From NCBI GenBank assembly GCA_963821235.1, contig CAWGCS010000001.1:510751-574750 (forward strand): 64,000 bases of DNA. The letters are read 5' to 3'. Below the pieces are notes generated by a model that saw only the letters and a list, made by a program, of their open reading frames with translations, had not been told where the DNA came from and made no database searches. Of the stretch, positions 29,503 to 64,000 are shown in pieces. The stretch is from an uncultured Chloroflexia bacterium (GTDB taxonomy: Bacteria; Chloroflexota; Limnocylindria; Limnocylindrales; CSP1-4). The first letter of the stretch is position 1. Each line of letters opens with the position of its first letter. The translations under genes and the position numbers were made by a program.

Positions 29503-29542
29503 CTCGCTATCGTGGCACACCGATCCGGTATCGTGGCCGACC

Positions 29543-40727: not shown

Positions 40728-41252
40728 GTGGCTTCCCCCTTCGGACCCAACGCGAGCGCCGCCGAGCGGCTGCTCGACGCCCTCGATCGCCTGCCGCCCG
40801 GCGCGGTGGTGGCCCTCGCGGCCGCCGGCAGCGAGCTGGGGACGGCCGACGACGACCCGGCGGTGGCCGCCCGGGCCGAGCTGCGCGGTCGCCTCCGCGC
40901 GGTGGCGAAGAGCGCCCGCCGGCTGGAGGCGGTGCGCGCGATCGGCGACGAGGTCGCGGCGTGGGCCTCCAGCGCCTCCCACTGGTTCCCCGCCGGCATC
41001 GCCGGCACCGGGGACAGCACGGCGGAGATCGCGCCGCGAATGGCGGCCGTGCCCGTCGTCCTGGACGCCGCCTATGCGGTGATCCTGGAGGACCTCCTCT
41101 CCGACGACGAGCTGGACCTCCTCCTGGGACCGTGGGAGGAGGTCGTCGGCTCGCCCTTCGACGAGCCCGGGGAAGGCGGCGACGACACGCGGGACGGCTG
41201 GGACGATCGGCTCGACGACGCCCAGCCCCTGCCCGTGGACGACGAGGGCTAG
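40728..41252 (+). CDS. hypothetical acidic protein
   Basis: 174 aa, GTG start, Asp/Glu-rich C-terminus. No recognisable domain, but the codon bias is coding-like. Confidence 0.35.
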   Translation: MASPFGPNASAAERLLDALDRLPPGAVVALAAAGSELGTADDDPAVAARAELRGRLRAVAKSARRLEAVRAIGDEVAAWASSASHWFPAGIAGTGDSTAEIAPRMAAVPVVLDAAYAVILEDLLSDDELDLLLGPWEEVVGSPFDEPGEGGDDTRDGWDDRLDDAQPLPVDDEG

Positions 41253-42955: not shown

Positions 42956-42985
42956 CGGCAGGGCCTCCGCCGCGCTCGTGCGCGG

Positions 42986-43933: not shown

Positions 43934-44598
43934 GCGCCGGCCTCGGGCTCGCGGAGCTCGCGACGCTCGACGTGGGCCCGGGTGGCCTCGGCGAGGTCCT
44001 CGATCTCGGCGAGGAGCTCCCCGACCCGGCCGCGCATCCCGTCGGCGAGGCCCTCGTCGCCGAGCGAGGGGAGGTTGACGAGGACGTTCTCGGCGGCCCC
44101 GTGGGCGGAGGCCTCGGCGAGGCGCGAGGCGACGGCGAGGTCGCTGGCGGCGTTGAGGTTGCTGCGCCCCGCCAGCCCCTCCGACGCGCGGACCACGTCG
44201 CGGCACGCCTCGAGGGTCCGCAGGGGGGCCTCCGCGGCGACGCGGGCCGAGGCCCGGATGGCGGCCGCCCGGGCCACCCGCTCCCCGTCCGACTCGCGAG
44301 GCAGCTTGAGCGCGGCGGCGAACGCGGCGTAGGCGTCGGCGTCCTCGTCGGCCAGGGCAAGGAGCCGGGCCGCGAGCTCGCGACCCGCCGCGCCGTGACG
44401 AGCGTGGCTCGCCTCGTGCGCGGCGTACCTGGGGCGGCCCTCGGAGAGCGCCGCGACCATCGCGACGAGCGCGGCGCCGCACGAGGCGGCCACGGCCGAG
44501 GCCGCCCCTCCGCCGGGGCTGGGGGTCGCCGACGCGAGGCTGTCGATGAACCCGTCGAGGGTCATCGACCCGAAACGAGCCGGGGGTGTCTCGGACAT
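43930..44598 (-). CDS. formimidoyltetrahydrofolate cyclodeaminase (stand-alone FtcD cyclodeaminase domain)
   Basis: The N-terminus (TLDGFIDSLASATPSPGGGAASAVAASCGAALVAMVAAL) is the signature of the cyclodeaminase domain. The 839-aa ORF in the track is a 5' extension artefact. Confidence 0.85.
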   Translation of the reverse strand: MSETPPARFGSMTLDGFIDSLASATPSPGGGAASAVAASCGAALVAMVAALSEGRPRYAAHEASHARHGAAGRELAARLLALADEDADAYAAFAAALKLPRESDGERVARAAAIRASARVAAEAPLRTLEACRDVVRASEGLAGRSNLNAASDLAVASRLAEASAHGAAENVLVNLPSLGDEGLADGMRGRVGELLAEIEDLAEATRAHVERRELREPEAGA

Positions 44599-44891
44599 GG
44601 GCTCGATTGTATGAGGCGAGTGACCCACCGACAGAGCCGTCCCGCCCGGACGGCCGGGCCGCGGGAACCGGCCCTGGATGACGGGCGGCTGCGCAGGGTG
44701 CCCGGCGCGGAGGCCCGCTGCCGGCCGGTCTGGTGCGATGGGACCTGAGGTCCAGGACGTGGCCGGGCCCGAGGCGAGCGCGGTACCGGTCGCGTTCACC
44801 CCGGGCCCGAGGAGATGGCCCGCCGGGAGGACGGCGGGCCGTGGCGCCGGGCGGAGGTCCGGCGCGGTAGATGCGGGCGGGTCGCCTCGCC

Positions 44892-45164
44892 TCAGGCGGC
44901 CCGGGCGACGTCGGTGTCCAGGCCCTCGACCAGCCAGCGCCGGCCGCGATGCCGGAAGGTCAGGGCGAGGCGAACCTCGGGCGTCTCGACCTCGAACGTC
45001 GTGCGCGGGCCGATCTCCGTCGGGTAGGCGGCGGTCTCGCGGCGCACCGCCGCGATGGCGGTCACCTGGATCGTCCGTTCGCCCCAGCGGATCTCCCGGG
45101 GGCGGCCGGAGAGCCAGTCGGTCCGGACCCGGACTTCGACCGGCTCGACGCGGGTCATGGCCAT
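44892..45164 (-). CDS. small hypothetical protein with LexA (Cheo) boxes in its promoter
   Basis: About 90 aa (MAMTRVEPVEVRV...). Its only upstream intergenic region contains two GAAC-N4-GTTC boxes. Start was chosen at the ATG downstream of the boxes. No recognisable family. Confidence 0.4.
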   Translation of the reverse strand: MAMTRVEPVEVRVRTDWLSGRPREIRWGERTIQVTAIAAVRRETAAYPTEIGPRTTFEVETPEVRLALTFRHRGRRWLVEGLDTDVARAA

Positions 45165-45215
45165 CGATCTGCTCCTTCTCGGCGGCTCGTCGTCGCCCGG
45201 GGCACTCGGGAGACA

Positions 45216-45261
45216 GAACACCTGTTCGACTCAAACGACACTCTAGATCGAACGTCCGTTC
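45216..45261. promoter_or_regulatory. two LexA-binding Cheo boxes (CAGAACACCTGTTCGA and TCGAACGTCCGTTCGA)
   Basis: Two direct matches to the Gram-positive SOS box consensus (T)CGAAC-N4-GTTCG(A), spaced 34 bp apart, between the dinB 3' end and the small ORF 5' end. Confidence 0.6.
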
Positions 45262-45362
45262 GATGTCAAGACCCCCGCTCGACGGGGATGGCGGGAGCGT
45301 CGCCGGTGGCGGTGCCAGCTTGAATGGCACAGGCGTTCGACGGTCGCGGGGCTGCCAGCGAC

Positions 45363-46652
45363 TCAGGCGTCGGCGTCGTCGGCGCTGTCGGGGGGCGGAC
45401 GATCGCCGTCTGGCGCCGTCGGCGCCGGGCGGGCGCGTCCCACCCGCCGCGGCTGCAGCGGCTGCATCGGGTCGCGGCCGGCCGGGTCGGCGAGGCGGTC
45501 GCCGAGCAGGCGCGCCTTCGTGAGGGAGCGGCTGCCGTACTTGCGCCGGATCGCGTCCTGCGCCTCCGCCGCCCTGCGCCGTCGCGGATCCTCGCTCGCG
45601 AAGAGCCCCAGCTGGGCCGGCTCTCCGAGGCCGTGCGCGCCCACCCCCAGCAGGCGAATCTTGCGGCCTCGGACCTCCGGCCGGACCAGGTCGAGGGCCG
45701 TCCGGAAGATGGGCTCGGCAAGATCGGTCGGCTCGGCCAGGGTGCGCTGGCGGGTGACGGTGTGGAACGCGCTGTCGCGGACCTTCACCTGGACCGTCGA
45801 CGCCCGGACCTCGCCGGCGCGCAGGCGCGAGGCAACCCCCTCGGAGAGGGCGAGGAGCGTGCGCTCGATGACCTCCGGGTCGGAGGTGTCGAGGTCGAAG
45901 GTATGCTCGTGGCTGACCGACTTGGCGGCGATCTCCCCGACGACGGGCGACGGGTCGATCCCCAGGGCCCGCTCGTGGAGCGTCGCCCCGTGCGCCCCGA
46001 GCCGACGGACCAGCACGTCGACCGGGAGCGCCGCGAGGTCGCCGATCGTGGCCACTCCGTGCTCGGCGAGGACCAGCCGCGTCTGCTCGCCCACGCCCCA
46101 CAGGCGGCGGATGGGGAGCGGCGCCAGGAACGCCGCCTCCCGGCCGGGCGGCACGACGACGAGGCCGTCGGGCTTGCGCAGGTCGGAGGCCACCTTGGCG
46201 ACGAGCTTCGTGGTGGCCGCGCCGACGCTCGCCGTCAGGCCCACCTCGCCCCGGACGTCGGCCTTGATCCGGCGGGCGATCTCCTCCGGCGGGCCGAAGA
46301 GCGCCTCGCTGCCGGCCACGTCGAGGAAGGCCTCGTCGATCGAGACCTGCTCGAGGAGCGGGGTGAAGCGGCCGAGGATCTCCATGACCCGCCGGCTCTC
46401 GCGGCGGTACGACGCCCCGTCGACCGGCAGGAAGACCCCCTGCGGACACAGCGCGGCCGCCGTCCGCAGGGGCATCGCCGATCGCACGCCGAACGCCCGC
46501 GCCTCGTAGCTGGCGGCCGAGACGACGCCGCGGGCGCCCGGGTCGCCGCCGACGATCACGGGCCGGCCCCGCAGCTCCGGCCGGTCGCGCTGCTCGACCG
46601 CCGCGAAGAAGGCGTCGAGGTCGACGTGGAGGATCGTGGGGCTGCTTCGCAC
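45363..46652 (-). CDS. dinB: DNA polymerase IV (Y-family translesion polymerase)
   Basis: Catalytic motifs (ILHVDLDAFFAAVE, SIDEAFLDV), palm/fingers, and the little-finger domain. Start was set at the GTG (VRSSPTILHVD). Confidence 0.9.
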   Translation of the reverse strand: MRSSPTILHVDLDAFFAAVEQRDRPELRGRPVIVGGDPGARGVVSAASYEARAFGVRSAMPLRTAAALCPQGVFLPVDGASYRRESRRVMEILGRFTPLLEQVSIDEAFLDVAGSEALFGPPEEIARRIKADVRGEVGLTASVGAATTKLVAKVASDLRKPDGLVVVPPGREAAFLAPLPIRRLWGVGEQTRLVLAEHGVATIGDLAALPVDVLVRRLGAHGATLHERALGIDPSPVVGEIAAKSVSHEHTFDLDTSDPEVIERTLLALSEGVASRLRAGEVRASTVQVKVRDSAFHTVTRQRTLAEPTDLAEPIFRTALDLVRPEVRGRKIRLLGVGAHGLGEPAQLGLFASEDPRRRRAAEAQDAIRRKYGSRSLTKARLLGDRLADPAGRDPMQPLQPRRVGRARPAPTAPDGDRPPPDSADDADA

Positions 46653-46672
46653 CCCTCTATCATCGCGGCGAC

Positions 46673-48679
46673 GTGAGTCCCGCCGATAGCCCCCTCCGCG
46701 CCGCCCCGTCGCTCGTGGCGGGCCGCCCGCTCGAGGTCGGGGCGGTCGGCGCGATCGGCTTCCTGCTCGCCTGGTTCGCACCGCCCCTGGCGGTCGCCGT
46801 CGCCTGGCCGTTCCTCTTCTTCGTCCCTGGGTGGCTGCTGGTCAGCCGGGTCGTGCCGAGGCTCGGGCCGGCCGGTCGCCTCGGCGTCGGCGTCGTCACC
46901 TCGACGTTCGTGGCCGCCCACCTCGGGAACGTGGTCGGCCTGGCAGCCGGGGGCTTCGACCGGCCGGTCGCCTTCGCGGTGGCGGCGATCCTCGCGGTGG
47001 CCAGCCTCGTCCTCGCGGTCGTGCCGATCCCGGGCCTGGCCCGGCCGCCATCGCTCGATCCGCGGGACGGCCTCGCCGCCGTCCGCCGCGAGCCGGCGCC
47101 GTTCGCGCTCGCCGCGCTCGCGGCCCTCGGGGTGGGGGGAGTCCTGGCCGCGAACGCGTGGCACGAGATCCCGGGCGGCTGGGTCTCAGGCGGGTGGAAC
47201 TGGAGCGACTTCCTCGTCCACGTGGCGATCGGCCAGAGCATCGTCGAGGGCAACTTCCCGCCCCAGGTCCCCTACTTCGCGGGCGTCCCGCTGACCTACC
47301 ACTGGTTCGCCGACTTCCACGGCGCGATCGCGGCGACGGTCGCCGGCTCGCACGTGATCCCGGTCTTCATCGCCTCCAGCGCGCTCCTGGCGGGCACCCT
47401 GGCCCTCGTGGCCTGGGAGCTGGCCCTGCGCCTCTTCGGGAGCCGCCGCGCGGCCACGATCGCGACGCTCCTCGTCTTCCTGGCCGGCGGGATGGGCTGG
47501 CTCCGCCTCGTCCTCGACCTCGGGGCGGGCGACGGGACGCCCTGGGACCTCATCCGGACGCGGGCCTACGACAACAGCTGGGACGACGGCTGGCCGTACT
47601 TCAGGATCGCCTCGATCCTCGGCACCGGGCTGTTCCCCCACCGGGCCACCACCTTCGGGCTGCCGGGGCTCCTGGCGGTCCTGTTGCTGGTCCGGGTCTC
47701 CCTGGGCCGGCGCCCCGCCGGCACCGCCCTGGCCGGCGTCCTGGCCGCCCTCCTGGCGCCCTTCCACTTCTACTTCTTCCCGACGACCTACCTGCTGGTC
47801 GGGCTCTACGCCGTCGCCCACCGCGCCTGGCGCCGCCGGGGCTGGCTCCGCGACGCGGCCCTCTTCCTGGCGCCGATCGTGCTGGCCCTGCCGTTCGTCG
47901 TCGGCCCCGCCCTCCTCCAGCGGGATCGGGGCGCCATTCGCTTCGTCCTCGGCTGGGAGGAGGCCCGCATCGAGGACGGGCCGGCGGCCGTCCTCTTCTT
48001 CTACCTCACCAACATCGGGCTGCCGCTGGTCCTGGGGGTCGTCGCGCTGATCGCCAGCCGGCCACCCGGGCGGGCGTACCTGGCGGCCTGGGCGGTGGCC
48101 TTCTTCATGATCCCCAACCTCGTCATGGCCGGCGCCGTGGCCTTCGACATGAACAAGTACTTCCAGCTCATGTCGGTCGCCCTCGCTCTCCTCGGCGGGT
48201 GGCTGCTCCACCGGCGGCGGACCGCCGTCGTCGCGATCGTGATCGCCGCGACGGCCGTGTCACCCGTGCTCGTCGCGACCTGGCACCTCGTGTCGGAGAC
48301 GGTCGCCCTCAGCACGGGCCAGGAGAAGGCCGCGCGCTGGATCGAGCAGAACACGCCGCAGCTGGCGGTCTTCGTGACCGACGCCTACATCAACAGCCCG
48401 GCCGACTACGCCGGCCGCCTGCGGGTCACGACGTTCTCGACGTACGCCGCCAACCTCGGCTACGACCCGTGGCCACGCGAAGCTGCCGTCCAGGTGGCCT
48501 ACTGCGACGGCCCCGAGGCGGCGGCGGGCGTGATGGCCCAGTACGGCGCGACGTACGTCCTGTCCTCGGGCGGGCAGCCCGACTGTGGCGGGGGGCCGCT
48601 CACGGACTTCTCGGGAAGCCCGCTCTTCGAGACGGTCTACGACGCCGACGGCGTCCAGATCTGGCGGCTGCGCGGCTGA
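46673..48679 (+). CDS. large polytopic membrane protein, GT-C-like glycosyltransferase fold (hypothetical)
   Basis: 668 aa with about 12 or more TM helices, large loops, and a C-terminal soluble domain. The N-terminal loop motif (NWSDFLVHVAIGQSIVEGNFPPQVPYFAGVPLTYHWFADF) resembles the lipid-linked sugar transferase (GT-C / DUF2029-type) architecture. The assignment is tentative. Confidence 0.5.
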   Translation: MSPADSPLRAAPSLVAGRPLEVGAVGAIGFLLAWFAPPLAVAVAWPFLFFVPGWLLVSRVVPRLGPAGRLGVGVVTSTFVAAHLGNVVGLAAGGFDRPVAFAVAAILAVASLVLAVVPIPGLARPPSLDPRDGLAAVRREPAPFALAALAALGVGGVLAANAWHEIPGGWVSGGWNWSDFLVHVAIGQSIVEGNFPPQVPYFAGVPLTYHWFADFHGAIAATVAGSHVIPVFIASSALLAGTLALVAWELALRLFGSRRAATIATLLVFLAGGMGWLRLVLDLGAGDGTPWDLIRTRAYDNSWDDGWPYFRIASILGTGLFPHRATTFGLPGLLAVLLLVRVSLGRRPAGTALAGVLAALLAPFHFYFFPTTYLLVGLYAVAHRAWRRRGWLRDAALFLAPIVLALPFVVGPALLQRDRGAIRFVLGWEEARIEDGPAAVLFFYLTNIGLPLVLGVVALIASRPPGRAYLAAWAVAFFMIPNLVMAGAVAFDMNKYFQLMSVALALLGGWLLHRRRTAVVAIVIAATAVSPVLVATWHLVSETVALSTGQEKAARWIEQNTPQLAVFVTDAYINSPADYAGRLRVTTFSTYAANLGYDPWPREAAVQVAYCDGPEAAAGVMAQYGATYVLSSGGQPDCGGGPLTDFSGSPLFETVYDADGVQIWRLRG

Positions 48680-51000: not shown

Positions 51001-53775
51001 GTGATCGTCCACAGCCCGTCCACAGGATGGGCAATGGACTGCACGCTCGCGGGCGACCTGGGGGACCTCCTCGTGGACAACCCCCTCGCGCCGCGCGCCG
51101 CCAGCGGGCACGATGGCAGCGAACCCAGAGCCCCAGCCGGAGTGCCCGTGTCCGTCGATCGCCTTCCGCCGCAGAGCCTCGAGGCCGAGCAGTCGGTCCT
51201 GGGCGCCGTCCTCATCGATCGCGACGCCATCATCGAGGTGGCCGACATCCTCCGGCCGGCCGACTTCTACCGGCAGGCGAACGCCACCATCTACGGGGCC
51301 ATGCTCGAGCTGTGGGAGCGCCGCGAGCCGATCGACATCGTCACGGTCGCCGAGGCGCTCGAGCGCGCCGCCAGCCTCGACGGGATCGGGGGCCGGGCCT
51401 ACCTCTCGTCGCTCGCGGAGCAGACGCCGACCGCCGTCTTCGCGGCGCAGTACGCCCGCATCGTGGAGCGCAAGGCCGTCCTGCGGAACCTGATCGCGGC
51501 CGCCGGCCGGATCGCCGGCATCGGCTACGAGGACTCGCCGGAGGTCCAGGAGGCGATCGATCGCGCCGAGGCGGAGCTGTACGCCGTCTCGGAGCGGCGG
51601 CTCGCCGCCGGGTTCAGCCCGCTGCGCGAGCTGCTCCACGAGGCCTTCGATCGGCTCGACTACCTCCACACCCACCGCGGGGAGATCAGCGGCGTGCGGA
51701 CGGGCTTCCCCGATCTCGACGCCCTGACGACGGGCCTCCAGCCCTCGGACCTCGTGATCCTCGCGGCGCGGCCGTCGGTCGGCAAGACGAGCCTCGCCCT
51801 GAACATCGCCGAGTTCGCGGCGATCGGTAACTCCCCGCCGCGCTCGGTCGGCATCTTCAGCCTCGAGATGAGCAAGGAGCAGCTCGTCCTCCGGCTCCTC
51901 TCGTCGGTCGGCGGCATCGACAGCCAGCGGCTGCGGACCGGCTTCCTCGACGAGATGGATTTCGTCGGCGTCTCGAAGGCGATGACGGCGCTCTCCGAGG
52001 CTCCCATCTACATCGACGACACGCCGAACATCAGCACGATGGAGCTCCGCACGAAGGCTCGCCGGCTCCAGGCCGAGACCGGCCTCGATCTCGTGATCGT
52101 GGACTACCTCCAGCTCATGCAGTCCTCGACGACGTCGAAGGACGCCAACCGGGTCCAGGAGGTCTCCGAGATCAGCCGCGGCCTCAAGGCGCTGGCGCGC
52201 GAGCTGAAGGTCCCGGTGCTCGCCCTGTCGCAGCTCTCACGCCAGCCGGAAGCCCGCACCACGCCCGAGCCGCGCCTGTCCGACCTTCGGGAGTGCGTCA
52301 CAGGGGAAACGCCGGTCGTCCTCGCAGACGGTCGCCGCGTGCCGATCCGGGACCTCGTCGGCACCACGCCGTGGATCCTGGCATGGCACGAGGATGGCCG
52401 GCTCGCACCTGCCGAGTCGGACCTCATCTGGTCCGTCGGGCGGAAGTGCGTAGTCACCGTCCGTCTCGCGAGTGGCCGGATGATCCGGGCGACCCCGAAG
52501 CATCAGCTGTTGACCGGGTTCGGCTGGCGACGTGTCGAGGAGATGGAAGCCGGCGACCGCGTCGCGTTGGCACGGCCACTCCCGGAGCCGCTAGAGGCGG
52601 AGCGGTGGCCCGACCAGCACGTGGTGCTGCTCGGCCACCTCGTCGGGGACGGCAGCTACCTCTCCAATCGACCGATGCGCTACACGACGGCCAGCGAGGC
52701 CAACTCCGCGGCGGTGGCGAGCGCAGCCACCTCGGCGTTCGGCGCGAACGTGACGCGAATGGCTGGCCGGGGGAGCTGGCACCAACTCCTGATCTCGGGC
52801 AACGGGAATCGATGGCACCCGGCCGGCGTGAACAAGTGGCTTCGGGACCTTGGGGTCTTCGGGCAGCGCTCGCCTGAGAAGCGCCTGCCGGAGTCGGTCT
52901 TCCGCCTCCGGAACGAGCAGCTCGTGCTGCTGCTCCGCCATCTCTGGGCCACCGATGGCACGATTTGCGCAGCGCCCGTCGGATCGCGCACGACGCACAA
53001 GGTGATGTACTCCACGAGCAGTCCCGGCCTGGCCGCCGACGTTGCCGCGGCACTCCTGCGCCTCGGGATCGTCGCCCGCATCAAGACGGCGACGAAGGCC
53101 GGTTACCGGCCTAGCTACCACGTCAACGTGTCCGGCGCGGCCGACCAGCACGCGTTCCTTGAACTCGTCGGCGGGTTCGGGCCGCGCGCGCCACAGGCTG
53201 AGCGGCTGGCCGCGGCACTCGCGGCCATTCGACCGAACACTAACGTGGACACCCTCCCGGCGGCCTTCTTCAACCGAGTCCGCGACAGGGCAGAGGAGCT
53301 CGGACTGTCGATGCGCAAGATCGCTGCCCTGCGCGAGACCGCGTACGCGGGATCTGCCCACACCGCCTTCCGGCCGTCGCGAGCCGTCGCCGCCGACTAC
53401 GCGACTCTGCTCGATGATCCGGATCTCGATCGCATGATCAATGAGCCGCTCTTCTGGGATCGGGTGGTCGCAATCGAGCCGGCGGGGATCGAGGAGGTCT
53501 TCGACCTGACTGTTCCGGGCCCCTCCAGCTGGCTTGCCGATGGCTTGGTGAGCCATAACTCGGGCGCGCTTGAGCAGGATGCGGACCTCGTCGTCTTCCT
53601 GTGGCGCGAGAAGGAGCGGGGATCCGAGGACCACGACGCCGATGGCGAGGTGGTGAAGCTGCGGCTGGCAAAGCACCGCAACGGCCCGACCGGCGAGATC
53701 GACCTCTGGTTCAAGAAGACCCAGACGCGCTTCGTGAGCTACGCCGGCGAGCGCTTCAGCGGCGCCGCGCCGTAG
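51001..53775 (+). CDS. dnaB: replicative DNA helicase DnaB, interrupted by an intein
   Basis: DnaB N-domain (QSLEAEQSVLGAVLID), Walker A (AARPSVGKTSLALNIA), Walker B (DLVIVDYLQLM), and the RecA-like C-domain. The conserved DLRE|SGALEQDADLV motif is split by a 422-aa insertion. The N-terminal start is uncertain: GTG at 51001 or ATG at 51034. Confidence 0.9.
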   Translation: MIVHSPSTGWAMDCTLAGDLGDLLVDNPLAPRAASGHDGSEPRAPAGVPVSVDRLPPQSLEAEQSVLGAVLIDRDAIIEVADILRPADFYRQANATIYGAMLELWERREPIDIVTVAEALERAASLDGIGGRAYLSSLAEQTPTAVFAAQYARIVERKAVLRNLIAAAGRIAGIGYEDSPEVQEAIDRAEAELYAVSERRLAAGFSPLRELLHEAFDRLDYLHTHRGEISGVRTGFPDLDALTTGLQPSDLVILAARPSVGKTSLALNIAEFAAIGNSPPRSVGIFSLEMSKEQLVLRLLSSVGGIDSQRLRTGFLDEMDFVGVSKAMTALSEAPIYIDDTPNISTMELRTKARRLQAETGLDLVIVDYLQLMQSSTTSKDANRVQEVSEISRGLKALARELKVPVLALSQLSRQPEARTTPEPRLSDLRECVTGETPVVLADGRRVPIRDLVGTTPWILAWHEDGRLAPAESDLIWSVGRKCVVTVRLASGRMIRATPKHQLLTGFGWRRVEEMEAGDRVALARPLPEPLEAERWPDQHVVLLGHLVGDGSYLSNRPMRYTTASEANSAAVASAATSAFGANVTRMAGRGSWHQLLISGNGNRWHPAGVNKWLRDLGVFGQRSPEKRLPESVFRLRNEQLVLLLRHLWATDGTICAAPVGSRTTHKVMYSTSSPGLAADVAAALLRLGIVARIKTATKAGYRPSYHVNVSGAADQHAFLELVGGFGPRAPQAERLAAALAAIRPNTNVDTLPAAFFNRVRDRAEELGLSMRKIAALRETAYAGSAHTAFRPSRAVAADYATLLDDPDLDRMINEPLFWDRVVAIEPAGIEEVFDLTVPGPSSWLADGLVSHNSGALEQDADLVVFLWREKERGSEDHDADGEVVKLRLAKHRNGPTGEIDLWFKKTQTRFVSYAGERFSGAAP
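52294..53559 (+). other. DnaB intein (422 aa) with embedded LAGLIDADG homing-endonuclease domain
   Basis: Begins with Cys1 (CVTGETPVVLADG, block A), carries block B (TPKHQLLT), LAGLIDADG motifs (LLGHLVGDGSY and LLRHLWATDGTI), and ends with VSHN followed by the Ser +1 extein nucleophile. It is inserted in the DnaB H4/RESG site. Confidence 0.85.
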
Positions 53776-55573: not shown

Positions 55574-58282
55574 ATGCACCGCATGCCACGTCCCCTCTCG
55601 GACCTCGCTCCTCAGCGCGCGCGCCATGCGGGCGGCCTCGTCGCCGTCGGGCCCGGGCGGGTCGAGCGCCCGAGCACCCCGACATCGCCGCCGGACGCGC
55701 CCGCCGCCCCCGATCCGGACGTCACCCTGATGGCTGAGCAGGCCTCCGGCGAGCTCGACGTCTTCGGCTTTCCCGTCCAGCTCGGCAAGGTCCAGCCGCC
55801 TCTGCTCCCGACGGAGACCCTAGAGCGCGAGCGCCTGCTCGGCTGGATGGCGGCGAAGGTTCACTCCCGGCTCGTGCTGATCGTCGCGGACGCCGGGTAC
55901 GGGAAGACCACCCTGCTGGCCGACTGGAGCCGCCGGACGCGGATCCAGACGCTCTGGTATCGCCTCGACGAGGCGGACCGGGACTGGGTCGTCTTCGTCA
56001 ACCACGTGGTCGCGGCCGGGCGCGAGATCGACCCGGGCTTCGCCCCCAACACGATGTCGCTCATCCGGGAGCTCGGTGCCGGCATGGGCGACCGGGCCTC
56101 CATCGTCCGGACGCTGCTGACCGAGATCCGGCGCTGGGTGACCGGCGGGACAGCGATGATCCTCGACGACTACCACCTCGTCGACGACGTCCCCGAAGTC
56201 CGCGAGATCGTGCGCGAGCTGCTCGTTCGCGGCCCGGAGCGGCTGGCCGTGGTCATCTCGACGCGACGGACGCCCACGCTGCCCCTCGCCCGCCTGCGCG
56301 CCCTCGGCGAGATCGCCGAGCTCTTCACGGCGGACCTGCGGTTCGACCGCGACGAGATGGAGCGCCTCTTCCGGGAGACGTATCGCCATCCCCTCGATGC
56401 GGACCTGCTCGAGGCCCTGGCGCGAACGACGGAAGGCTGGGCGGCAACGCTCCGTCTCGTGGAGACCGCCGTGCGGGGACGCCCGCGCGAGGAGGTGCGG
56501 GCGGTCATCCAGGGCCTCTCGGCGCGACACGGCGACCTCCACGACTACCTGGCCGAGGAGGTCGTCGGCCGGATGCCGACGGAGCTCCAGGACTTCCTCG
56601 AACGCTGCGCGCTCCTGCACGTGGCCACGCCCCAGCTCGCCAGTGCCGCAGCCGCCGTCTCGATCGTCGACGCCCGCCGCCTGCTGGACGTCACGGAGGA
56701 GGCCGGCCTCCTCTCGCGGCGGGGTCGCACGGGCCAGGCCGGGCGCCTCCTCCACCCGCTGGTGCGAAGCTTCCTCGAGGGCCGCCTCCTCGAGGCCGTC
56801 GGACCGGACGGCGTCGCCGAGATCCACGTGCGCATCGCCATCGCCGCGGAGCTCAACAGCTGGTGGCTGGCCGCCCACCACTACGCCGCCGCCGGTCGTC
56901 ACGACGACGTGGCCCGGGTCCTCTCCGGCTCCCTCGAGGCGATCCTCGGATCGGGTGGTGCCCAGGCCGCCGTCGACCTCATGGCGGCTGGGGTTGAGCC
57001 GGATCGCGCGTGGCACCGAGTCCTGATTGCCCGTCGACACCTCGGAGAGGGACGGTTCCGCGATGGTGCCCAAGAGGCCAACCTCGCATGGCAGGCGGTG
57101 AGGAGCGGGGACGACATCGGGGCGGATTGGGTCCTGTTAACCCTGATCGCCGCGTGCTTTGCGCAAGGCGACTACGCCGGCGGGTCCTCATGGGGCCTCG
57201 GCTCTCACTGGCTCGGCGCAGGGCTCAATGGCCCGGTCAGTCGCCAAAGCCGTCCTAGCCTTGGCTGACTCGACCGTAGACGGGTCGCTTGATCTGACTG
57301 CGGATCTCATTGCTGACACAGCGCGGCTCGCGGCCGAACTCGGACACCGACACTTCTACGGCATCTCGATGCTCAACCTCGGTTGGGTTGACCGCTACAG
57401 AGGTCTCACACCAGAGGTGGCCGACCACGCCCGCGCCGCCGAACGCGCCTTGAGTGAGACTTCAGCCGGTCCGGAATTGTCGACGGTCCACACGCTCCTC
57501 GCCTGGTCGCACGCACAAGCATGCGAGATCGGTCGCGCGCGCGAGGAACTCCAACTCGCGAGAGGCCTCTCGCGTGAGGCCACGCGCTACGAGACGCTCG
57601 TCGAGGCCGCGGACATCGTTGGTGCGTACTCAGACACCGAAGAGGCTCATGAGCTCCTCCTGGCGGCAGCCTCCTCCCAGCCAAGACTCCGCCGCCGACG
57701 AAGCCCTCTACGCGCTGACGTGCGCGGAGAACGAGCTCCGACGGGGCGATGTCACAACCGCCGCTGAGGCGCTCGCCCGGACACCCGACGGCATAGTCGC
57801 TGGTCACCCGGCGTTTCGTGCGCGCCGGATGCTCGCAAGGCTGACGATCGAGCTCGAAAGCGGGTTGATCAGAGACGAAGCGGTCGTTCATGCCGCCATC
57901 GAGCGCGCCCAGAGCCAGGGGGCGGGCGCGGTTGTCCCGGGACTGCAACTCGTGCTTGGCGCGATTGGCGGCTCTGACGCCCTCAGCCGATCTGTGAAGC
58001 GGGTTGGCGAGCGCGGCGACCGGGCGGTCCTCAGCGTTCATGCAGAACTCCTCGTTTCCCGACTGGACCAGCTGGATGAATCGCGCCGCCAGACTCGTCC
58101 GTACCGAGGCTCAGAGACGACCGACGAGGTGGCGCCCCGCGTTGCGGCGCGCGCTCGCCGGCCGACCTGCCTTGGCACTGCAGGCGGCTCAAGTCCTCGA
58201 GCTGATCGGTGATGCCAGCGACGTAGTCGTGCTCCGGCGATTGAGCAAGGATTTGCGCGGAGCTCTCGAAGGCCTGACCTAG
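55574..58282 (+). pseudogene. STAND-type (MalT/AfsR-like) P-loop ATPase with TPR/helical C-terminal region, disrupted by about 3 frameshifts
   Basis: Walker A (LVLIVADAGYGKTTLLADW) and an NB-ARC-like domain are intact in one frame to about 57.2 kb. The helical TPR-like continuation is readable only by switching frames at about 57.2, 57.67 and 58.08 kb. Codon usage here has lower GC3 than the rest of the window. Sequencing indels cannot be excluded. Confidence 0.5.
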
Positions 58283-58314
58283 GTCGGGCACTCGCGCGCC
58301 GGATCGCACCGCGC

Positions 58315-59023
58315 GTGTGGGTGGAAGATCAAGGGCGGGTAGTCCTCCGCGTCGGTGCCAACGAGATACCGGGCACGTCGGTCCGTCGCAAGGCGCTGGC
58401 ACTGCTCTGCTACCTGCTGACGAGGCCCGGCTTCTCTGCCTCGCGAGACCAGGTTCTCGACGCATTGTGGCCGGAGCAGGATCCCGACCAGTCGGTCAAC
58501 TCCCTCCATCAGACCGCGTACTTCCTGCGCCGCGTGTTCGAACCACAGTACGCGGACGATTTGTCGCCGGGATACCTCAACCACAACCCGGAGCTGCTCT
58601 GGCTCGACCCTGAGCTTGTTGACAGCCGAAGCAGCGCATGCCGTCGCCTTCTCGACTCATGTGGCCGACCCCCGAGTCCAGCGAGGTCGACGCGCTCTCG
58701 ATCACCTACCGAGGGGCCTTCGCGCTGGACTTCGCCTACGAGGAGTGGGCGTCGCCGTATCGGGAGACTCTGCACGCCCGCTACCTCGAAACCCTGGAAA
58801 TGGCATCCAGGCGGATATCGCCGGTGGCCACCTCGATCGAGCGATTGTCTTGGCGCGTCGCTTGCTGGAGGTCGATCCCGACGTCGATGAGGTAGAGCGA
58901 ACGCTCCTGCGTCTATACCGCGCTGCAGGAGCACACGCCGCGGCGGCTGAGCAGTACACGCACTACGCGGTAACCGTTCGCCGGGACCTTGGCCTTGATC
59001 CTCCGAGTCTCGCGGACGTGTGA
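58315..59023 (+). pseudogene. SARP-type regulator (OmpR-like winged helix + BTAD), disrupted by about 2 frameshifts
   Basis: The N-terminal wHTH (RRKALALLCYLLTRPGFSASRDQVLDALWP) is in one frame. BTAD segments (DFAYEEWASPYRETLHARYLETLEM; RLLEVDPDVDEVERTLLRLYRAAG) lie in two other frames. Confidence 0.45.
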
Positions 59024-59512
59024 TCAGGCAACCGGATTCGGACGGGCGGTCGAGGGCCATTAGGTAAGGTTCGGTATTGACCGGTTCGCCGCGACCGGCC
59101 TAGAGTCCCACCTGCTTCTGGTACGAAGGTACTAGTAAGCAATGTCAATCTCGGGACGCGCTGATACTCCGCCTGAAATGGGCACTTAGGGCGGAGTGGA
59201 GCGACTAGTGCAACCGACCGGTTCAAGGTCGGTTTCCGTGCTCAGGATGAGCGCGGAAACCCATTGGAGGGCACACGATGGGTCCCGAATTCGGCTCGAA
59301 GGGCTTCTAGCGGCCGGGATGAGGCAGTCCGGGGTATCGAGTGATGAAGCACCGACTCCTGCGCCTCTTGGCGGCGGTCAGCACGCTGGCCGCTGCCGTC
59401 CTCGCCGGTGGCGCCTCCCTGAAGGGGTTCTAGGTACTTAGGTCCCACTACAGGTCGCCCAATCGGCACGGTAGAGTCTGTCTGCCGAGTGGAAGCAGCG
59501 ACCTGAGGTCTA

Positions 59513-61057
59513 ATGCCTCGTAGCCTCAAGATCTACATCGCTGGGCTCGTCGCGGTCAGCGCATTTGCGTTGGTTGCGACGAGCCTTGTGATTCCCATCG
59601 ACACCCGGATTGCTCTCGGCCTAACGGGCAACGAGCCCGTGGACACTCTGGTCGGCATTGCGTTCTGGACCGTCATGACGCTGCTTGCGTCGGCCTTTCC
59701 GGTCCAGATGCCACGAGGCTCGTTGATCAACACGTCGATTGCGACACTCGTGGCTGCATTGAGTCTCGGCGGGCCAACTGCCGCGGGTTGGGTCGCGCTC
59801 ATTGGCACCACGGAACTGCGTGAGCTCTCTGGGCGGGTGCCCTGGTACGGGACGCTGGCAAACCATGCTGGCTTGGTCCTCCCCGCGGTCGTCGGAGGTG
59901 CGGTCAGTTCGGCTTTGGCTGGCAGCGCGGGCATGGACGCACCACCCCTGTGGAGCTTCATCGCGTCGATGGCCGGTGCGTCTGCCTTCTTTGCCTTGAA
60001 CGTGTCCTTCACGTCGGTGACGGTTGCCCTCAAGTCGGGGCAATCAATGAGAGTGGTCGTCTTCGGGGACCTGCCCACGTTCTTCGCCAACTGGGTCGCA
60101 CTCTCACCGCTCGCGTGGTTGATGGCTTTCGCGACGCTCAGGGTCGGATGGTGGGCGACTCTCCTGTTTGCGCTCCCCGTCTGGATCATGAGGGGGGCGC
60201 TTGACCAGATCATCGAGATGCGGGAGATGTTCACGCAGACGGTGCGGAGTCTGGCGGGGGCTGTCGACGCGAGGGATACGTTCACGGCGGGCCACAGCCG
60301 GCGCGTACAGCAGATCTCCGTGGACATCGGGCGCGTGCTGAGGCTGTCGGAGAGCGACCTGGAGGCCCTGGAATGGGGCGGGCTCCTGCACGACATCGGC
60401 AAGATCGGCGTGCGGGACGACGTGCTGAACAAGCCGGACAAGCTGACGAAGGAAGAGCGGGCGCTGATGAACGCCCACCCGGTGATCGGCGCGAACATCA
60501 TCGCCCCGGTCACGAAGCTGGCCCCGGAGCTGCCGCTCATCCGCCATCACCACGAGTGGTTCAACGGCTCGGGCTACCCGGATCGGCTGATCGGGGACGA
60601 GATCCCCAGGCTCGCCCGCATCCTGCACGTCGCGGACGCCTTCGAGGCCATGACCACGGCGCGCCCCTATCGGATGACGCCGCTCACCAACGACCAGGCG
60701 ATGGACGAGCTGCGGCGGTTCGCCGGCATCCAGTTCGACCCGGCGATGGTGGACGCCTTCGCCCGCACGCACTGGGCGGCCGGCGCCAGCGACCCTGGGC
60801 GACCCTCCGAGCTGAGGCCGCCGGTGCCGCTCCTGGCCCAGGCGGCCAGCCGGATGGCCCAGGCGCGCGGCAGGACCGACGCCGGCGACCCGGGGACGCC
60901 CGGATCGGCGATGGCCGGCTCGGCGGTCGCCGCCCTCATGCCGCCGACCCTCGTCCCGCCGGCCCTCGTGCCGCCGACCCTCGTGCCGCCGGTGCGCGTG
61001 CCCACGGCGATCGCTCCGCCCGGCACGTCCGGCCCCGCTTCCGACCCCGCGTCCTGA
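59513..61057 (+). CDS. HD-GYP domain c-di-GMP phosphodiesterase with N-terminal polytopic membrane sensor domain
   Basis: About 7 N-terminal TM helices, then the HD-GYP catalytic domain (TAGHSRRVQQISVDI; LLHDIGKIGV; HHEWFNGSGYPDRL; ILHVADAFEAMTTARPYR). The C-terminus has a Pro-rich tail with a (L/V)VPP(A/T)L repeat. Confidence 0.85.
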   Translation: MPRSLKIYIAGLVAVSAFALVATSLVIPIDTRIALGLTGNEPVDTLVGIAFWTVMTLLASAFPVQMPRGSLINTSIATLVAALSLGGPTAAGWVALIGTTELRELSGRVPWYGTLANHAGLVLPAVVGGAVSSALAGSAGMDAPPLWSFIASMAGASAFFALNVSFTSVTVALKSGQSMRVVVFGDLPTFFANWVALSPLAWLMAFATLRVGWWATLLFALPVWIMRGALDQIIEMREMFTQTVRSLAGAVDARDTFTAGHSRRVQQISVDIGRVLRLSESDLEALEWGGLLHDIGKIGVRDDVLNKPDKLTKEERALMNAHPVIGANIIAPVTKLAPELPLIRHHHEWFNGSGYPDRLIGDEIPRLARILHVADAFEAMTTARPYRMTPLTNDQAMDELRRFAGIQFDPAMVDAFARTHWAAGASDPGRPSELRPPVPLLAQAASRMAQARGRTDAGDPGTPGSAMAGSAVAALMPPTLVPPALVPPTLVPPVRVPTAIAPPGTSGPASDPAS

Positions 61058-61069
61058 CACAATCCCGGG

Positions 61070-63088
61070 ATGCTCCTCTCAGGGATCGTCCTGGGCCTCG
61101 TCGTCGGGCTCGCCGCGGGCGGCCGATTCGACAACCTCCTCGCGGTCCGCCTCCGCTGGACGCTGCTGCTCTTCCTGGCGGTCGCCCTTCGCCTGGGAAC
61201 GGAAGCGGCGCTGCAGCGCAACGTCGCCCTCGCGGACCAGTTCCGGATGCCCCTCCTCGCCCTGGCCTACGGGATCCTCATCGTGGCGCTGTGGGTCAAC
61301 CGGACGCGGCCGGGAATCAGCATGGCGCTCGTGGGATCGGTGCTGAACGCCACGGCGATCCTGGCCAACGGCGGCTTCATGCCGGTCTGGGACCAGGCCC
61401 TGCGGGGCGCCGAGCTCTCCCCCTCGGACATCCTCTCGCCGATCCACTTCCTGCTGGCGACCACGGACGCGTCCGAGTTCCTCCTCCGGGCGGGCCCGCT
61501 GGGGGACGTGATCCCGATCCCGATCCCCGTGTTCCGGAACGTCCTCTCGATCGGCGACGTCCTCCTGGCGCTCGGCCTCGCCTTCTTCGCCTTCGCCAGC
61601 CTCCTCCGCGAGCCGCCCACCGTCGACGCCGCTGGCAGGCCGATCGGCGGCGACATCGCGGTCGCCGGCGGGCTGGGCAGTCGCCACCGCGTCCGTCCGG
61701 CCACCGGGCTGTCGTCGAGCCTGACGGCGACGATCGCCCTCGAGCGGCCCGTCGTCCTGGGCGGCTCCGGCGCCGGCATCGCGATCCCCGCCCCCACCCC
61801 CTCCCCGGGGGCGCCCGGAGGCCTGGATGCGCGGACGAGGGGGATCCTTGCCCGGGCGCTCGGCCACCCCTACGTCCGCCTCGCCCAGAACGGCTCGTTC
61901 GGCGCGCTCTGGGTCGGCCAGCTGATCTCCCTCTTCGGCGACCGGGTCCACCAGATCGCCCTGGCATTCCTCGTCCTCCACACCACCGACTCGCTCATCG
62001 CGGTGGCCCTGACGTTCATGGCCGCGACCCTGCCGAACATCGTCTTCGGGCCCATCGCCGGCGCCCTCGTCGATCGCTGGGACCAGAAGCGGGTGATGAT
62101 CCTCTCCGACCTCCTGCGGGCCGCGATCGTGCTCCTGCTGCCGGTCGCAGCGGGGGCGAACGTGCTGCTCGTCTATCCCCTCGTCTTCAGCCTGACGACC
62201 GTCTCCCTCTTCTTCCGCCCCGCCCGGACGGCGGTCATCCCGCGAATCGTCCGCGACGACGAGCTCGTCGCGGCCAACTCGGCGACGTGGCTGGGGGAGA
62301 CGATCGCCGATGTCATCGGCTATCCGCTGGCGACCCTCTTCGTGGCCTTCCTCGGCGGCGCCCTGGCCCTCGCCTTCTGGATCGACGCCGCCTCCTACGT
62401 CGCCTCCGCGCTCCTGCTCCTGACGATGACCGTCCCGGCCGTGGTGCGGACGGTCGCCCAGTCGGTGCCGGGCCTGCGGGGCCTCCGTGACGACCTGCTC
62501 ACCGGCTGGCGGTTCCTGCGCGGGGAGCCCGTCCTCCTGGCGAACACCCTCCAGGCGGTCGTCGGCCAGTTCTCGATCGGGGTGACCATCGCGATCATGG
62601 CCGGCTACGCGCGGGACGCCCTGACCTCGGTCGCCTTCGACGACATCGCGCGCTACGGGTTCATCGAAGCGGCGATCGGGATCGGCAACCTGGCCGGCGG
62701 CTTCGTCATCGGCCTCATCGGCAACCGGATCGCCCGCGGCCGCCTCGTGATCGTCGGCTACGTCGGCTACGGGGCGTGCGTCGCGGGGCTGGCCCTGACC
62801 GGCAACCTGGAGGCCGCCCTGGGGCTGGCCCTGGGCATGGGCGTGGCGAACATGGTGTTCGTCATCCCGACGCAGACGCTCTTCATGGAGCGGACGCCGG
62901 GCGACATGATCGGGCGGGTCGTCGGCTTCCGCTTCGCCGCGGTGTTCGGCTCCATGACGCTGGCGATGGGCATCGGCGGGTTGCTGGGCGAGGCCTTCGG
63001 GGCCCCGGCGGTCTTCGGCGTCTTCGGAATCGTGACCGTCGCGGCGGGGCTGGCAGGCCTGTTGAGCCGTCCGCTGCGCGAGGCATGA
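61070..63088 (+). CDS. fusion of DUF5317-like membrane domain and MFS transporter
   Basis: The first ~230 aa are 5-6 TM helices resembling DUF5317. The remainder is a 12-TM MFS_1 transporter (GALWVGQLISLFGDRVHQIALAFLVL). A single uninterrupted ORF. Confidence 0.65.
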   Translation: MLLSGIVLGLVVGLAAGGRFDNLLAVRLRWTLLLFLAVALRLGTEAALQRNVALADQFRMPLLALAYGILIVALWVNRTRPGISMALVGSVLNATAILANGGFMPVWDQALRGAELSPSDILSPIHFLLATTDASEFLLRAGPLGDVIPIPIPVFRNVLSIGDVLLALGLAFFAFASLLREPPTVDAAGRPIGGDIAVAGGLGSRHRVRPATGLSSSLTATIALERPVVLGGSGAGIAIPAPTPSPGAPGGLDARTRGILARALGHPYVRLAQNGSFGALWVGQLISLFGDRVHQIALAFLVLHTTDSLIAVALTFMAATLPNIVFGPIAGALVDRWDQKRVMILSDLLRAAIVLLLPVAAGANVLLVYPLVFSLTTVSLFFRPARTAVIPRIVRDDELVAANSATWLGETIADVIGYPLATLFVAFLGGALALAFWIDAASYVASALLLLTMTVPAVVRTVAQSVPGLRGLRDDLLTGWRFLRGEPVLLANTLQAVVGQFSIGVTIAIMAGYARDALTSVAFDDIARYGFIEAAIGIGNLAGGFVIGLIGNRIARGRLVIVGYVGYGACVAGLALTGNLEAALGLALGMGVANMVFVIPTQTLFMERTPGDMIGRVVGFRFAAVFGSMTLAMGIGGLLGEAFGAPAVFGVFGIVTVAAGLAGLLSRPLREA

Positions 63089-63223
63089 GGCCGGCTGGGC
63101 CGGAATCCGCACGCCCGGCCCGGGCCCTCGGCTACACTCGCGGCGGAGCGCAGGTTCGGGGCGGCAATCGGCCCCTCGCGCTCGCCGCCCGTCGTGGCGG
63201 CACCAGGGAGTGACGACGCAACG

Positions 63224-63790
63224 ATGACCGAGCGGGACGGACGCGCCGCCGACGAGACGACCGAGATCGATGCCGACGAGGCGGCCGACGCAGCGGCTGC
63301 CGGGCTCGAAGGGGTCGAAGGCGAGGACGAGGCGGCCGCCGCGGCCGAGGAAGCCGACTTCGAGGACGCTGCCGCGCGGGAGGCCGGGTTCGACGAGACC
63401 GACCTCCTGGAAGAGGAGCCGGCGCCGGTCGGAGGGCCTGGCCGTGTCGAAGCGGCGCCCGGTCGCCGGCCCGCCCGTCGGGGACCGGCCGGCCCGGAGC
63501 GCGCGCCGTCCCTCTCCGAGATCGCGGTCCACATCGACGACCGCATCTCGAAGGTGTTCGTCATCGCCGTCACGGCGGTCTTCGCCCTGATCTTCCTCAA
63601 CGCGCTGCTCCTGGGCAAGGGCGGCCTCTTCTCGCCGGTCCCGACGCCCACGCCGGTCCCCAGCGCCACCGCGGCCCCGTCGGCGACCCCGGCGCCGTCG
63701 CTGACGGCGGCGCCCAGCGGCTCTCCCGGCGCATCCGCGACACCTGCGGCCAGCGCCACGCCCGTCCCCAGCGCGTCCGCCACGCCCTAG
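63224..63790 (+). CDS. hypothetical membrane-anchored protein with acidic N-terminus and Pro/Thr/Ala/Ser tail
   Basis: An Asp/Glu/Ala-rich N-terminal 100 aa, one TM helix (VFVIAVTAVFALIFLNALLL), then a low-complexity PTPVPSATAAPSATP tail. Confidence 0.35.
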   Translation: MTERDGRAADETTEIDADEAADAAAAGLEGVEGEDEAAAAAEEADFEDAAAREAGFDETDLLEEEPAPVGGPGRVEAAPGRRPARRGPAGPERAPSLSEIAVHIDDRISKVFVIAVTAVFALIFLNALLLGKGGLFSPVPTPTPVPSATAAPSATPAPSLTAAPSGSPGASATPAASATPVPSASATP

Positions 63791-63951
63791 CCGTCGCGAG
63801 CCGGCGGCCCGAGCTCCGCGCTCCGGGGGAGGCGTATCCTCGGCGCGTGGCTCCGCCCCGCGACAGCGCTCCTCCCGGCACCGCCCCGTCGGCGGGCCGC
63901 GACCGGTGGCGATCGGGCAATGGCGACCCATTCGCGGCCGCCCGGACGGCG

Positions 63952-64000
63952 ATGCTGCAGGGCCAGCTGCGCGCCCGCGGCATCCACGACGAGCGCGTCC
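63952..64000 (+). CDS. pcm: protein-L-isoaspartate O-methyltransferase, 5' fragment running off the window end
   Basis: MLQGQLRARGIHDERV matches the PCMT N-terminal consensus (..QLRARGI.DERVL). Only about 16 codons are visible. Confidence 0.45.
   Translation, partial: MLQGQLRARGIHDERV

Follow-up and report, generated by a model that had tools for sequence, protein, structure and literature searches.

Ancestral low GC and probable assembly errors at a conserved cyclic di-GMP locus of uncultured Chloroflexota

What does a stretch of low GC content, filled with broken reading frames, represent in an otherwise very GC-rich bacterial genome? The question is raised by a 64-kb piece of DNA from an uncultured Chloroflexia bacterium (hereafter the window: 64,000 nucleotides of contig CAWGCS010000001.1, assembly GCA_963821235.1), in which a large regulator gene falls into pieces just upstream of a gene for an HD-GYP-type phosphodiesterase of cyclic di-GMP (c-di-GMP). 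An earlier prediction, made from the letters of the window, had seen here an island of foreign origin with a decaying regulatory module. The answer proposed here is that the tract is probably an intact and old c-di-GMP locus, in which one regulator gene is followed by a riboswitch-controlled operon and the single-nucleotide insertions and deletions (indels) that interrupt the regulator are errors of the assembly. It builds on the parts of the locus and the order in which they stand, on how they are conserved across about 100 related loci, and on a conspecific genome in which the regulator gene is intact.

The drop in composition is plain. The window has an overall GC content of 73.2%, with a mean of 0.736 +/- 0.031 in 500-nt windows outside the tract; across about 57.0-60.4 kb the value is 0.62-0.66, no other low-GC run in the 64 kb is as long, and the position-specific GC pattern is disrupted. 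The lower-GC stretch that the original prediction had placed at 57.1-60.3 kb is thus borne out by 500-nt sliding windows and by GC at third codon positions (GC3), and composition and codon usage are far from uniform (0.62-0.66 in the tract versus 0.736). Read in the correct frames, the regulator gene has a GC3 of 0.90-0.92 in 55574-56800 and of 0.66-0.74 in most later segments, while the HD-GYP gene starts at 0.74-0.78 over its first 200 codons and climbs back up to 0.95-0.96. A hidden Markov model of GC periodicity, run over the whole window, was too coarse for frameshifts and labelled 56.9-60.0 kb as 'non-coding' throughout.

Is this composition foreign? All 22 intact orthologues of the locus from other species, some of them in short-read assemblies, have the GC3 trough at the same place. 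The first 40% of their regulator genes has a high GC3 and the remainder one of 0.6-0.8, the 600 nt that follow the gene have 0.56-0.67 GC, and recovery is gradual over about 2 kb. The closest syntenic contig (L001, 76-80% nucleotide identity) likewise falls from 0.72-0.77 to 0.61-0.65 GC at this place, within an open frame. The trough begins in the middle of a gene, the 5' half of the regulator being of normal composition; it is centred on the promoter and leader described below and covers the variable, sensor-encoding halves of both flanking genes. Because it recurs at the same place in the 22 intact orthologous loci, the low GC3 is, on this comparison, an ancestral property of the locus and not a foreign one. 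Pseudogene decay was also considered as the cause of the low GC3 and was ruled out, since intact orthologues share the trough.

The surroundings of the tract are equally conserved. The same neighbours occur in about 100 related loci, and patchy presence was not seen among them. Upstream, dnaB (with an intein and a LAGLIDADG endonuclease), a 482-codon open reading frame (ORF) and a dodecin gene recur in 50-65 related loci, the linkage of dnaB, dodecin and the regulator itself being seen in 54-65; the HD-GYP gene follows the regulator in 82 of 86, and after it come DUF5317 in 63 of 66 and a major facilitator superfamily (MFS) transporter in 60 of 66. No integrase, transposase or tRNA gene flanks the tract, the only tRNA gene in the window being at 216-289. 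When the borders of the supposed island are compared with relatives, trough and neighbours are conserved and no border marked by a mobility gene or tRNA appears. Judged by this distribution, the locus is a vertically inherited core-genome signalling locus of high-GC, Limnocylindria-like Chloroflexota.

The next question is how many genes the broken frames represent. As assembled, the regulator consists of seven frame segments, each of them open, and tblastn with an intact homologue follows them in the frame order 2>3>1>2>1>3>2 along the window. Without six 1-nt indels they become one gene of 1,149 codons, whose translation is open up to a natural stop at 59021-59023. The intact orthologue architecture could be recovered from 22 related loci, where the homologues are one ORF of about 1,080-1,190 codons with the order nucleotide-binding oligomerization domain (NOD), middle region, winged helix-turn-helix (wHTH) and BTAD. 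The STAND gene and separate SARP gene of the original prediction are therefore a single gene. The frame breaks that it had listed are real in the given sequence, with six 1-nt indels in place of five breaks: four of its five intervals hold an indel, the interval at 58.62-58.66 kb lies 20-60 nt upstream of the one at 58678, and the indel at 58267 was missing from the list.

Is the gene also broken elsewhere in the species? A SPAdes Illumina contig from another sample (L052, coverage 4.4x), reached via the 90% cluster of the HD-GYP protein, is 98.1% identical to the window in a global alignment over 57030-64000 and, because of this identity, is assigned to the same species. Its first gene is an unbroken 663-codon ORF that runs off the contig start and corresponds to the C-terminal 663 codons of the regulator. 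Relative to this copy, the window is one base longer at each of 57192 (G4 versus G3), 57685 and 58083, and one base shorter at each of 58267, 58678 (CC versus CCC) and 58805. Further differences in length are two 3-nt polymorphisms that keep the frame (58013 and 58171) and two 1-nt indels in the leader, but there is no indel at all in the 4.67 kb of 59330-64000, even though this part holds 80 single-nucleotide polymorphisms.

Once the six indels are set aside, the regulator differs from its conspecific copy by 25 synonymous and 9 conservative nonsynonymous changes, with no nonsense codon. The ratio of nonsynonymous to synonymous polymorphism (pN/pS) is 0.13, compared with 0.29 (HD-GYP), 0.34 and 0.17 in three intact neighbour genes, and the nonsynonymous fraction is 0.26 versus a neutral expectation of 0.73 (p = 1.5e-8). 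The 34 substitutions show no excess over the 36.5 expected under the constraint of the neighbour genes, so that an indel:substitution ratio of at least about 0.5 would be required for all six to have arisen naturally; the probability of at least six natural indels is 3e-4 at a ratio of 0.1, and 3e-4 to 9e-3 for ratios of 0.1-0.2. Of the two marks of a pseudogene, a disrupted frame is thus present as assembled and relaxed selection is absent, which contradicts the idea of a decaying module. Among contigs of the Joint Genome Institute (JGI) metagenomes no further conspecific was found, the best full-length match being 73% identical and a partial one 84%. Short-read contigs often start or end in or just after the low-GC part of the regulator, as at the start of L052 (equal to window position 57030) and at the ends of L006, L023, L024, L026 and L027, an observation that would fit strain-level heterogeneity.

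If the gene is intact, where do the breaks come from? Frame breaks were counted across related loci with the corrected regulator and the HD-GYP protein as fixed references; an earlier detection had accepted a break when two or more loci supported it and few matches ran across it. The 34 loci from Nanopore-only metagenome-assembled genomes (MAGs) of the Microflora Danica (MFD) project hold 56 breaks in 51,112 aligned residues (1.10 per 1,000 aa), versus 2 in 77,820 residues (0.026 per 1,000 aa) in 78 other loci, taken from short-read MAGs and JGI metagenome contigs. The rate is thus 43-fold higher in Nanopore-only than in other assemblies (p = 2e-20). The MFD MAGs are Flye assemblies with one Medaka round and no short-read polishing (PMC12313526), and the same group has reported that frameshifting indels persist in bins below about 40x coverage when short-read polishing is omitted (PMC9262707). 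In some MFD loci (L017, L035, L036, L046), and also in L001, the breaks run throughout. Because several otherwise clean MFD loci have breaks confined to the trough, the pattern of the window, with clean flanks and a cluster in the trough, has counterparts in Nanopore-only assemblies. The HD-GYP gene behaves in the same way: of its 28 MFD breaks, 24 are in the first 232 codons, the low-GC part that encodes the membrane domain (p = 1.7e-4), and the 78 non-MFD loci have none.

Together, these results make it likely that the six indels arose as errors in the consensus of a metagenome assembled from long reads (Nanopore-type). Of the regulator, the public annotation covers only the first, 564-aa piece (P0001), and it is probably wrong, because the frameshifts follow sequencing technology and not biology; used as a query, the same piece finds a large protein family in Chloroflexota MAGs, many of them labelled Limnocylindrales. 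Two side observations concern the distribution of breaks. At about 11.0-11.7 kb in the locus coordinates of L002-L048, where these first 232 codons of the HD-GYP gene lie, there is an apparent technology-specific error hot spot tied to the GC trough. The only two breaks outside MFD loci (L082 about 5770 and L086 about 5594) share one position, at about aa 1109 of the regulator, and in two such similar contigs this is possibly a genuine C-terminal variant.

The corrected protein has a recognizable architecture. Its aa 72-450 match the NCBIfam MalT model NF003420 (E = 1.3e-53, 182 bits) and the structure of MalT, the STAND activator of the Escherichia coli maltose regulon (PDB 8bob, E = 6e-34); Walker A (GYGKTT, aa 108-113) and Walker B (ILDDY) can be read in this part, and PF25873 WHD_MalT is recorded on homologues. 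The ATPase, which had been labelled NB-ARC, is accordingly MalT-type rather than Pfam NB-ARC. As in MalT, an N-terminal NOD with a winged helix, aligning over about 370 residues, carries the Walker motifs and leads into a long helical sensor region. It is not an orthologue of MalT by the standard of the model, as the 182 bits fall short of the equivalog cut-off (537 bits) and the match covers no more than positions 6-377 of the 903 in the model. Where MalT has a LuxR-type helix-turn-helix, the protein has an OmpR-type wHTH (PF00486, E = 1e-6 to 6e-6, 26.8-29.1 bits, cut-off 26.2) followed by BTAD (PF03704, 43.6 bits, cut-off 22.1). Both components of a SARP are thus present in the required order and above their Pfam cut-offs, and the SARP domain of AfsR from Streptomyces coelicolor (PDB 8hvr, residues 69-273) aligns to aa 940-1144 (E = 4e-5).

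AfsR is built from the same set of parts, namely SARP (wHTH and BTAD), NOD and a helical repeat region, in another order. The SARP module makes up the last 210 residues of the protein studied here and its NOD is N-terminal, so it lacks the layout of a 'large SARP'; in AfsR and the other SARPs of the same paper the SARP module is N-terminal (PMC10936776). Other differences are the MalT-like NOD, the host (Chloroflexota versus Actinomycetota) and the neighbourhood, a c-di-GMP operon as opposed to a biosynthetic gene cluster. Mean pairwise identity among orthologues is lowest in the middle region (27-40%, aa 400-900), compared with 52-60% in the NOD and 63% in the wHTH, which is better conserved than any other block in the C-terminal half. 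As output domains the protein has only wHTH and BTAD, with no nuclease, protease, TIR or other effector domain, and no PADLOC antiphage model matches the regulator at E <= 0.01. By its domain content, the regulator is a MalT-type STAND switch with a C-terminal SARP output.

The 489-nt spacer between the regulator and the HD-GYP gene is more conserved at the nucleotide level than the coding sequence that flanks it. A scan for sigma-70-type promoters finds one site, versus 0.1 expected in shuffled sequences. Its -35 hexamer TTGACC is identical in 42 of 43 aligned loci and the -10 element TA(G/T)AGT is kept in most, while the spacer between the two varies freely; repeats flank the -35 hexamer (GGTTCG 15 nt apart, GACCGG 14 nt apart). 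Downstream of this promoter-like site, the window holds its only match to the c-di-GMP-II riboswitch family RF01786 (63.5 bits, gathering score 53.5, E = 1e-13, model positions 1-84 of 84), and no other Rfam family is found in the leader at E <= 1. The match exceeds the gathering score in 8 of 9 further loci (57-66 bits), and a core-sequence pattern places the riboswitch in about 93 of 102 related loci. Across the 43 aligned loci the aptamer core is invariant and the inner stem has compensatory changes (UA in 18 and CG in 14; AU in 19 and GC in 17), the other pairs being invariant; among such related sequences this covariation is supportive rather than independent proof.

The aptamer runs into an expression platform with two hairpins, both predicted by RNAfold (z = -4.95). 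Hairpin 1 (59212-59234, AACCGACC/GGUCGGUU) is terminator-like and invariant in the 43 loci, its 5' strand AACCGACC is the 3' part of the aptamer, and in most loci it is followed by the U-rich UUUUCGUGUU. Hairpin 2 (59234-59258) takes the U-tract of hairpin 1 as its 5' strand and has compensatory changes in 36 loci, which suggests a multi-state expression platform. A consensus terminator scan makes no call in the window itself, where the U-tract is short. An RF01786 aptamer with a competing, terminator-type platform is also found in Clostridioides difficile, whose four class II switches (Cdi-2-4, which precedes pilA1, is an example) terminate without ligand and are ON switches (PMC6366702). The element described here differs from them in its second conserved hairpin, its two conserved leader ORFs and its occurrence in Chloroflexota; a search of full texts yielded no paper that connects c-di-GMP-II riboswitches with Chloroflexi.

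Two small ORFs lie between the platform and the HD-GYP gene. The first occurs in 87 of 92 loci, with a length of exactly 10 codons in 82, with ATG or GTG starts and all three stops in use; its consensus is M-x-P-[ED]-x-x-x-K-[GP]-[FW]-stop, and most of the variation in its Pro and Glu/Asp codons is at third positions. The second, with a GC3 of 0.90 and no NCBIfam match, is found by a strict pattern in 67 of 99 loci and is 29 codons long in 65 of these. In the window it ends in AGGASLKGF, so that the K-G-F-stop ending is common to both leader ORFs.

The membrane-sensor HD-GYP gene of the original prediction stands as described (59513-61057). Its product has the HD superfamily domain with the HD and GYP motifs that define the subtype (HD_5 E = 2.2e-35; HD at aa 293, HHE at aa 346, GYP at aa 354) and at least four hydrophobic N-terminal segments, and is predicted to be active as a phosphodiesterase. 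HD, HHE and GYP within HD_5 are what it shares with known HD-GYP phosphodiesterases. The best NCBIfam match is to the phosphodiesterase part of a response-regulator c-di-GMP phosphodiesterase model; the N-terminus is a multi-pass membrane region with no Pfam match, in the place of a receiver domain. Its motif reads HHEWFNGSGYP, where the canonical HD-GYP motif has Asp for the Asn. The DUF5317-MFS protein encoded next (DUF5317 E = 1.5e-25, MFS_1 E = 3e-31, TIGR00900 E = 1e-59) is a fusion conserved in about 60 of 66 loci, and a literature search on DUF5317 found no papers.

Table 1. Features of the regulator and HD-GYP locus in the window
Feature	Position	Strand	Details
Regulator gene, MalT-type STAND NTPase, helical middle and C-terminal SARP module	55574..59023	+	1,149 codons without six 1-nt indels
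NOD (nucleotide-binding and winged-helix), aa 72-450	55787..56923	+	NCBIfam MalT NF003420, PDB 8bob
Six frame-breaking 1-nt indels relative to L052	57192..58805	+	Global alignment
OmpR/PhoB-type winged helix (Trans_reg_C), aa 937-991 of corrected protein	58381..58548	+	Pfam PF00486
BTAD, aa 1044-1143 of corrected protein	58700..59005 (approximate)	+	Pfam PF03704; split by the 58805 indel
Sigma-70-type promoter-like site (TTGACC, 18 nt, TAGAGT)	59077..59106	+	Sequence scan, 43-locus alignment
c-di-GMP-II riboswitch aptamer	59145..59228	+	Rfam RF01786
Expression platform, two hairpins	59212..59258	+	Alignment, RNAfold
Leader mini-ORF, 10 codons, MGPEFGSKGF-stop	59278..59310	+	Strong Shine-Dalgarno sequence GGAGGG at 59266-59271
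Small ORF, 29 codons, MKHRLLRLLAAVSTLAAAVLAGGASLKGF-stop	59344..59433	+	One hydrophobic helix, conserved AGGASL(K/R)G(F/W/L) end
HD-GYP c-di-GMP phosphodiesterase (predicted), intact, multi-pass membrane N-terminus (aa 1 to about 235)	59513..61057	+	Pfam PF13487 HD_5
DUF5317 membrane domain fused to MFS transporter	61070..63088	+	Starts 13 nt after the HD-GYP stop

Farther upstream, the DnaB of the conserved neighbourhood is encoded at 51001-53775 on the plus strand (Pfam DnaB, DnaB_C, Intein_splicing and LAGLIDADG_3), with a LexA gene just before it at 49.1-51.0 kb. On the minus strand, 27206-29835 and 41249-46781 hold an intact one-carbon and histidine-degradation set, identified from the translations only: imidazolonepropionase, glutamate formiminotransferase, formate-tetrahydrofolate ligase, FolD and cyclodeaminase, together with a DinB-type polymerase.

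How might such a locus work? The promoter, the riboswitch, the two leader ORFs, the HD-GYP gene and the DUF5317-MFS gene would form a separate transcription unit, a candidate feedback operon. Because the terminator-like hairpin takes its 5' strand from the 3' part of the aptamer, an ON switch would be expected: with c-di-GMP bound, the shared strand would stay in the aptamer and transcription would not be terminated. A high level of c-di-GMP would in this way turn on the phosphodiesterase that breaks it down, a negative feedback, and the adjacent STAND/SARP protein may provide a second, ligand-gated input at the promoter. That this protein controls the promoter may be supposed from the linkage of the two. 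In AfsR, direct repeats that overlap the -35 element are bound by the SARP domain, which also makes contact with RNA polymerase and is modulated by the NOD/TPR (tetratricopeptide repeat) part (PMC10936776). The locus is in any case a set of known kinds of part in an undescribed combination. A more ambitious and rather doubtful proposal is that of an undescribed, clade-wide c-di-GMP homeostat, in which the riboswitch would work not by a simple terminator alone but through a composite leader of two competing hairpins and two translated leader ORFs, and the promoter would be controlled by the STAND/SARP protein of reversed domain order. Under this proposal, the K-G-aromatic-stop endings shared by the leader ORFs suggest a peptide-dependent step (ribosome pausing or coupling) that would gate HD-GYP and DUF5317-MFS.

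The rival explanations account for part of these observations. A horizontally acquired low-GC island with a decaying regulatory module would explain why GC and GC3 are clearly below the rest of the window and why the frame of the regulator is broken, but it is highly improbable: the trough is shared by the 22 intact orthologous loci of other species and starts in mid-gene after a 5' half of normal composition, the position beside dnaB and dodecin and the downstream synteny are conserved, integrases, transposases and flanking tRNA genes are missing, and purifying selection on the gene is strong. The original prediction had also thought of an Avs-like antiphage system. STAND scaffolds recur in defence systems, and the protein does combine a STAND NTPase with a variable, sensor-like C-terminal region; still, that it would be an antiphage sensor and not a transcription factor is barely credible, given the lack of a PADLOC match, output domains limited to wHTH and BTAD, and a fixed core-genome position linked to a signalling operon where a variable defence island would be expected. 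The fallback offered by the same prediction, assembly errors in an intact regulator upstream of HD-GYP, is favoured by the evidence, with one fused gene in place of a pair. As for the control of HD-GYP by that regulator, the fallback had overlooked that the HD-GYP operon has its own promoter and c-di-GMP-II riboswitch.

Could the frameshifts nevertheless be real, the regulator being a very recent pseudogene in this strain next to an intact, riboswitch-controlled HD-GYP operon? The breaks do stand in the deposited sequence, between flanks that look clean, and they are confined to the regulator, with none in the 4.7 kb of adjacent genes relative to L052 (P = 5.5e-4 that chance would place all six in this gene). 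Natural in-frame indel polymorphism exists within the species, at 58013 and 58171, and two of the five non-coding leader differences are indels, so the local indel:substitution ratio might be high. Such a pseudogene is nonetheless unlikely. Six independent indels, all of a single base and unaccompanied by neutral substitutions, are improbable at ratios of 0.1-0.2, the corrected gene has the low pN/pS of a constrained one, lacks nonsense codons and carries no more substitutions than expected, its conspecific copy is unbroken, and breaks of this kind are far more frequent in Nanopore-only assemblies and nearly absent from short-read ones.

Several points nevertheless weigh against an intact locus with assembly errors. 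We infer the long-read origin of the contig from its length of 2.69 Mb in an uncultured lineage. Breaks have no support in 44-57 and 59.3-64 kb, and those genes that were examined at 27-30 and 41-47 kb are unbroken, so the errors would have to be local, with six of them clustered in 1.6 kb. Only two of the six indels clearly alter the length of a short base run, which is not the classic profile of long-homopolymer errors. At 59240 it is the window and not L052 that matches the family consensus, so L052, with its coverage of 4.4x, is not error-free or not identical throughout. SARPs bind direct repeats at a spacing of 11 or 22 bp, the last of them 8 bp from the -10 element; no such 11- or 22-nt repeats are evident by eye at the promoter in the 43-locus alignment, and the ON logic, the phosphodiesterase activity and the STAND/SARP control are read from sequence. 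As a conjecture, the clustering might reflect a mixture of strains where the sequence is hypervariable, or reads from sibling species that the highly conserved leader had anchored. GANTC lies within 3 nt of three of the eight 1-nt differences (57685, 58083 and 58678; uncorrected p about 0.002, by hand and post hoc), and there are 13 such sites in the 2.5-kb tract versus 1.7 per kb window-wide. GANTC methylation was rejected as the cause of the errors, since no break is seen at 10 of the tract's 13 sites or at any of the 96 in the remainder of the window.

Read as an intact locus, the tract is a cautionary case: a GC dip with clustered frameshifts can mimic a decaying island, and here the dip is ancient and the frameshifts track technology. 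Similar truncated gene calls affect many Nanopore-only MAGs of the lineage. A class II riboswitch tied directly to a c-di-GMP-degrading enzyme is a self-regulating arrangement that has been described as rare. The host belongs to an uncultured, soil-abundant lineage of Chloroflexota, and its locus adds to that arrangement two conserved leader peptides and a STAND regulator whose domain order is unusual.

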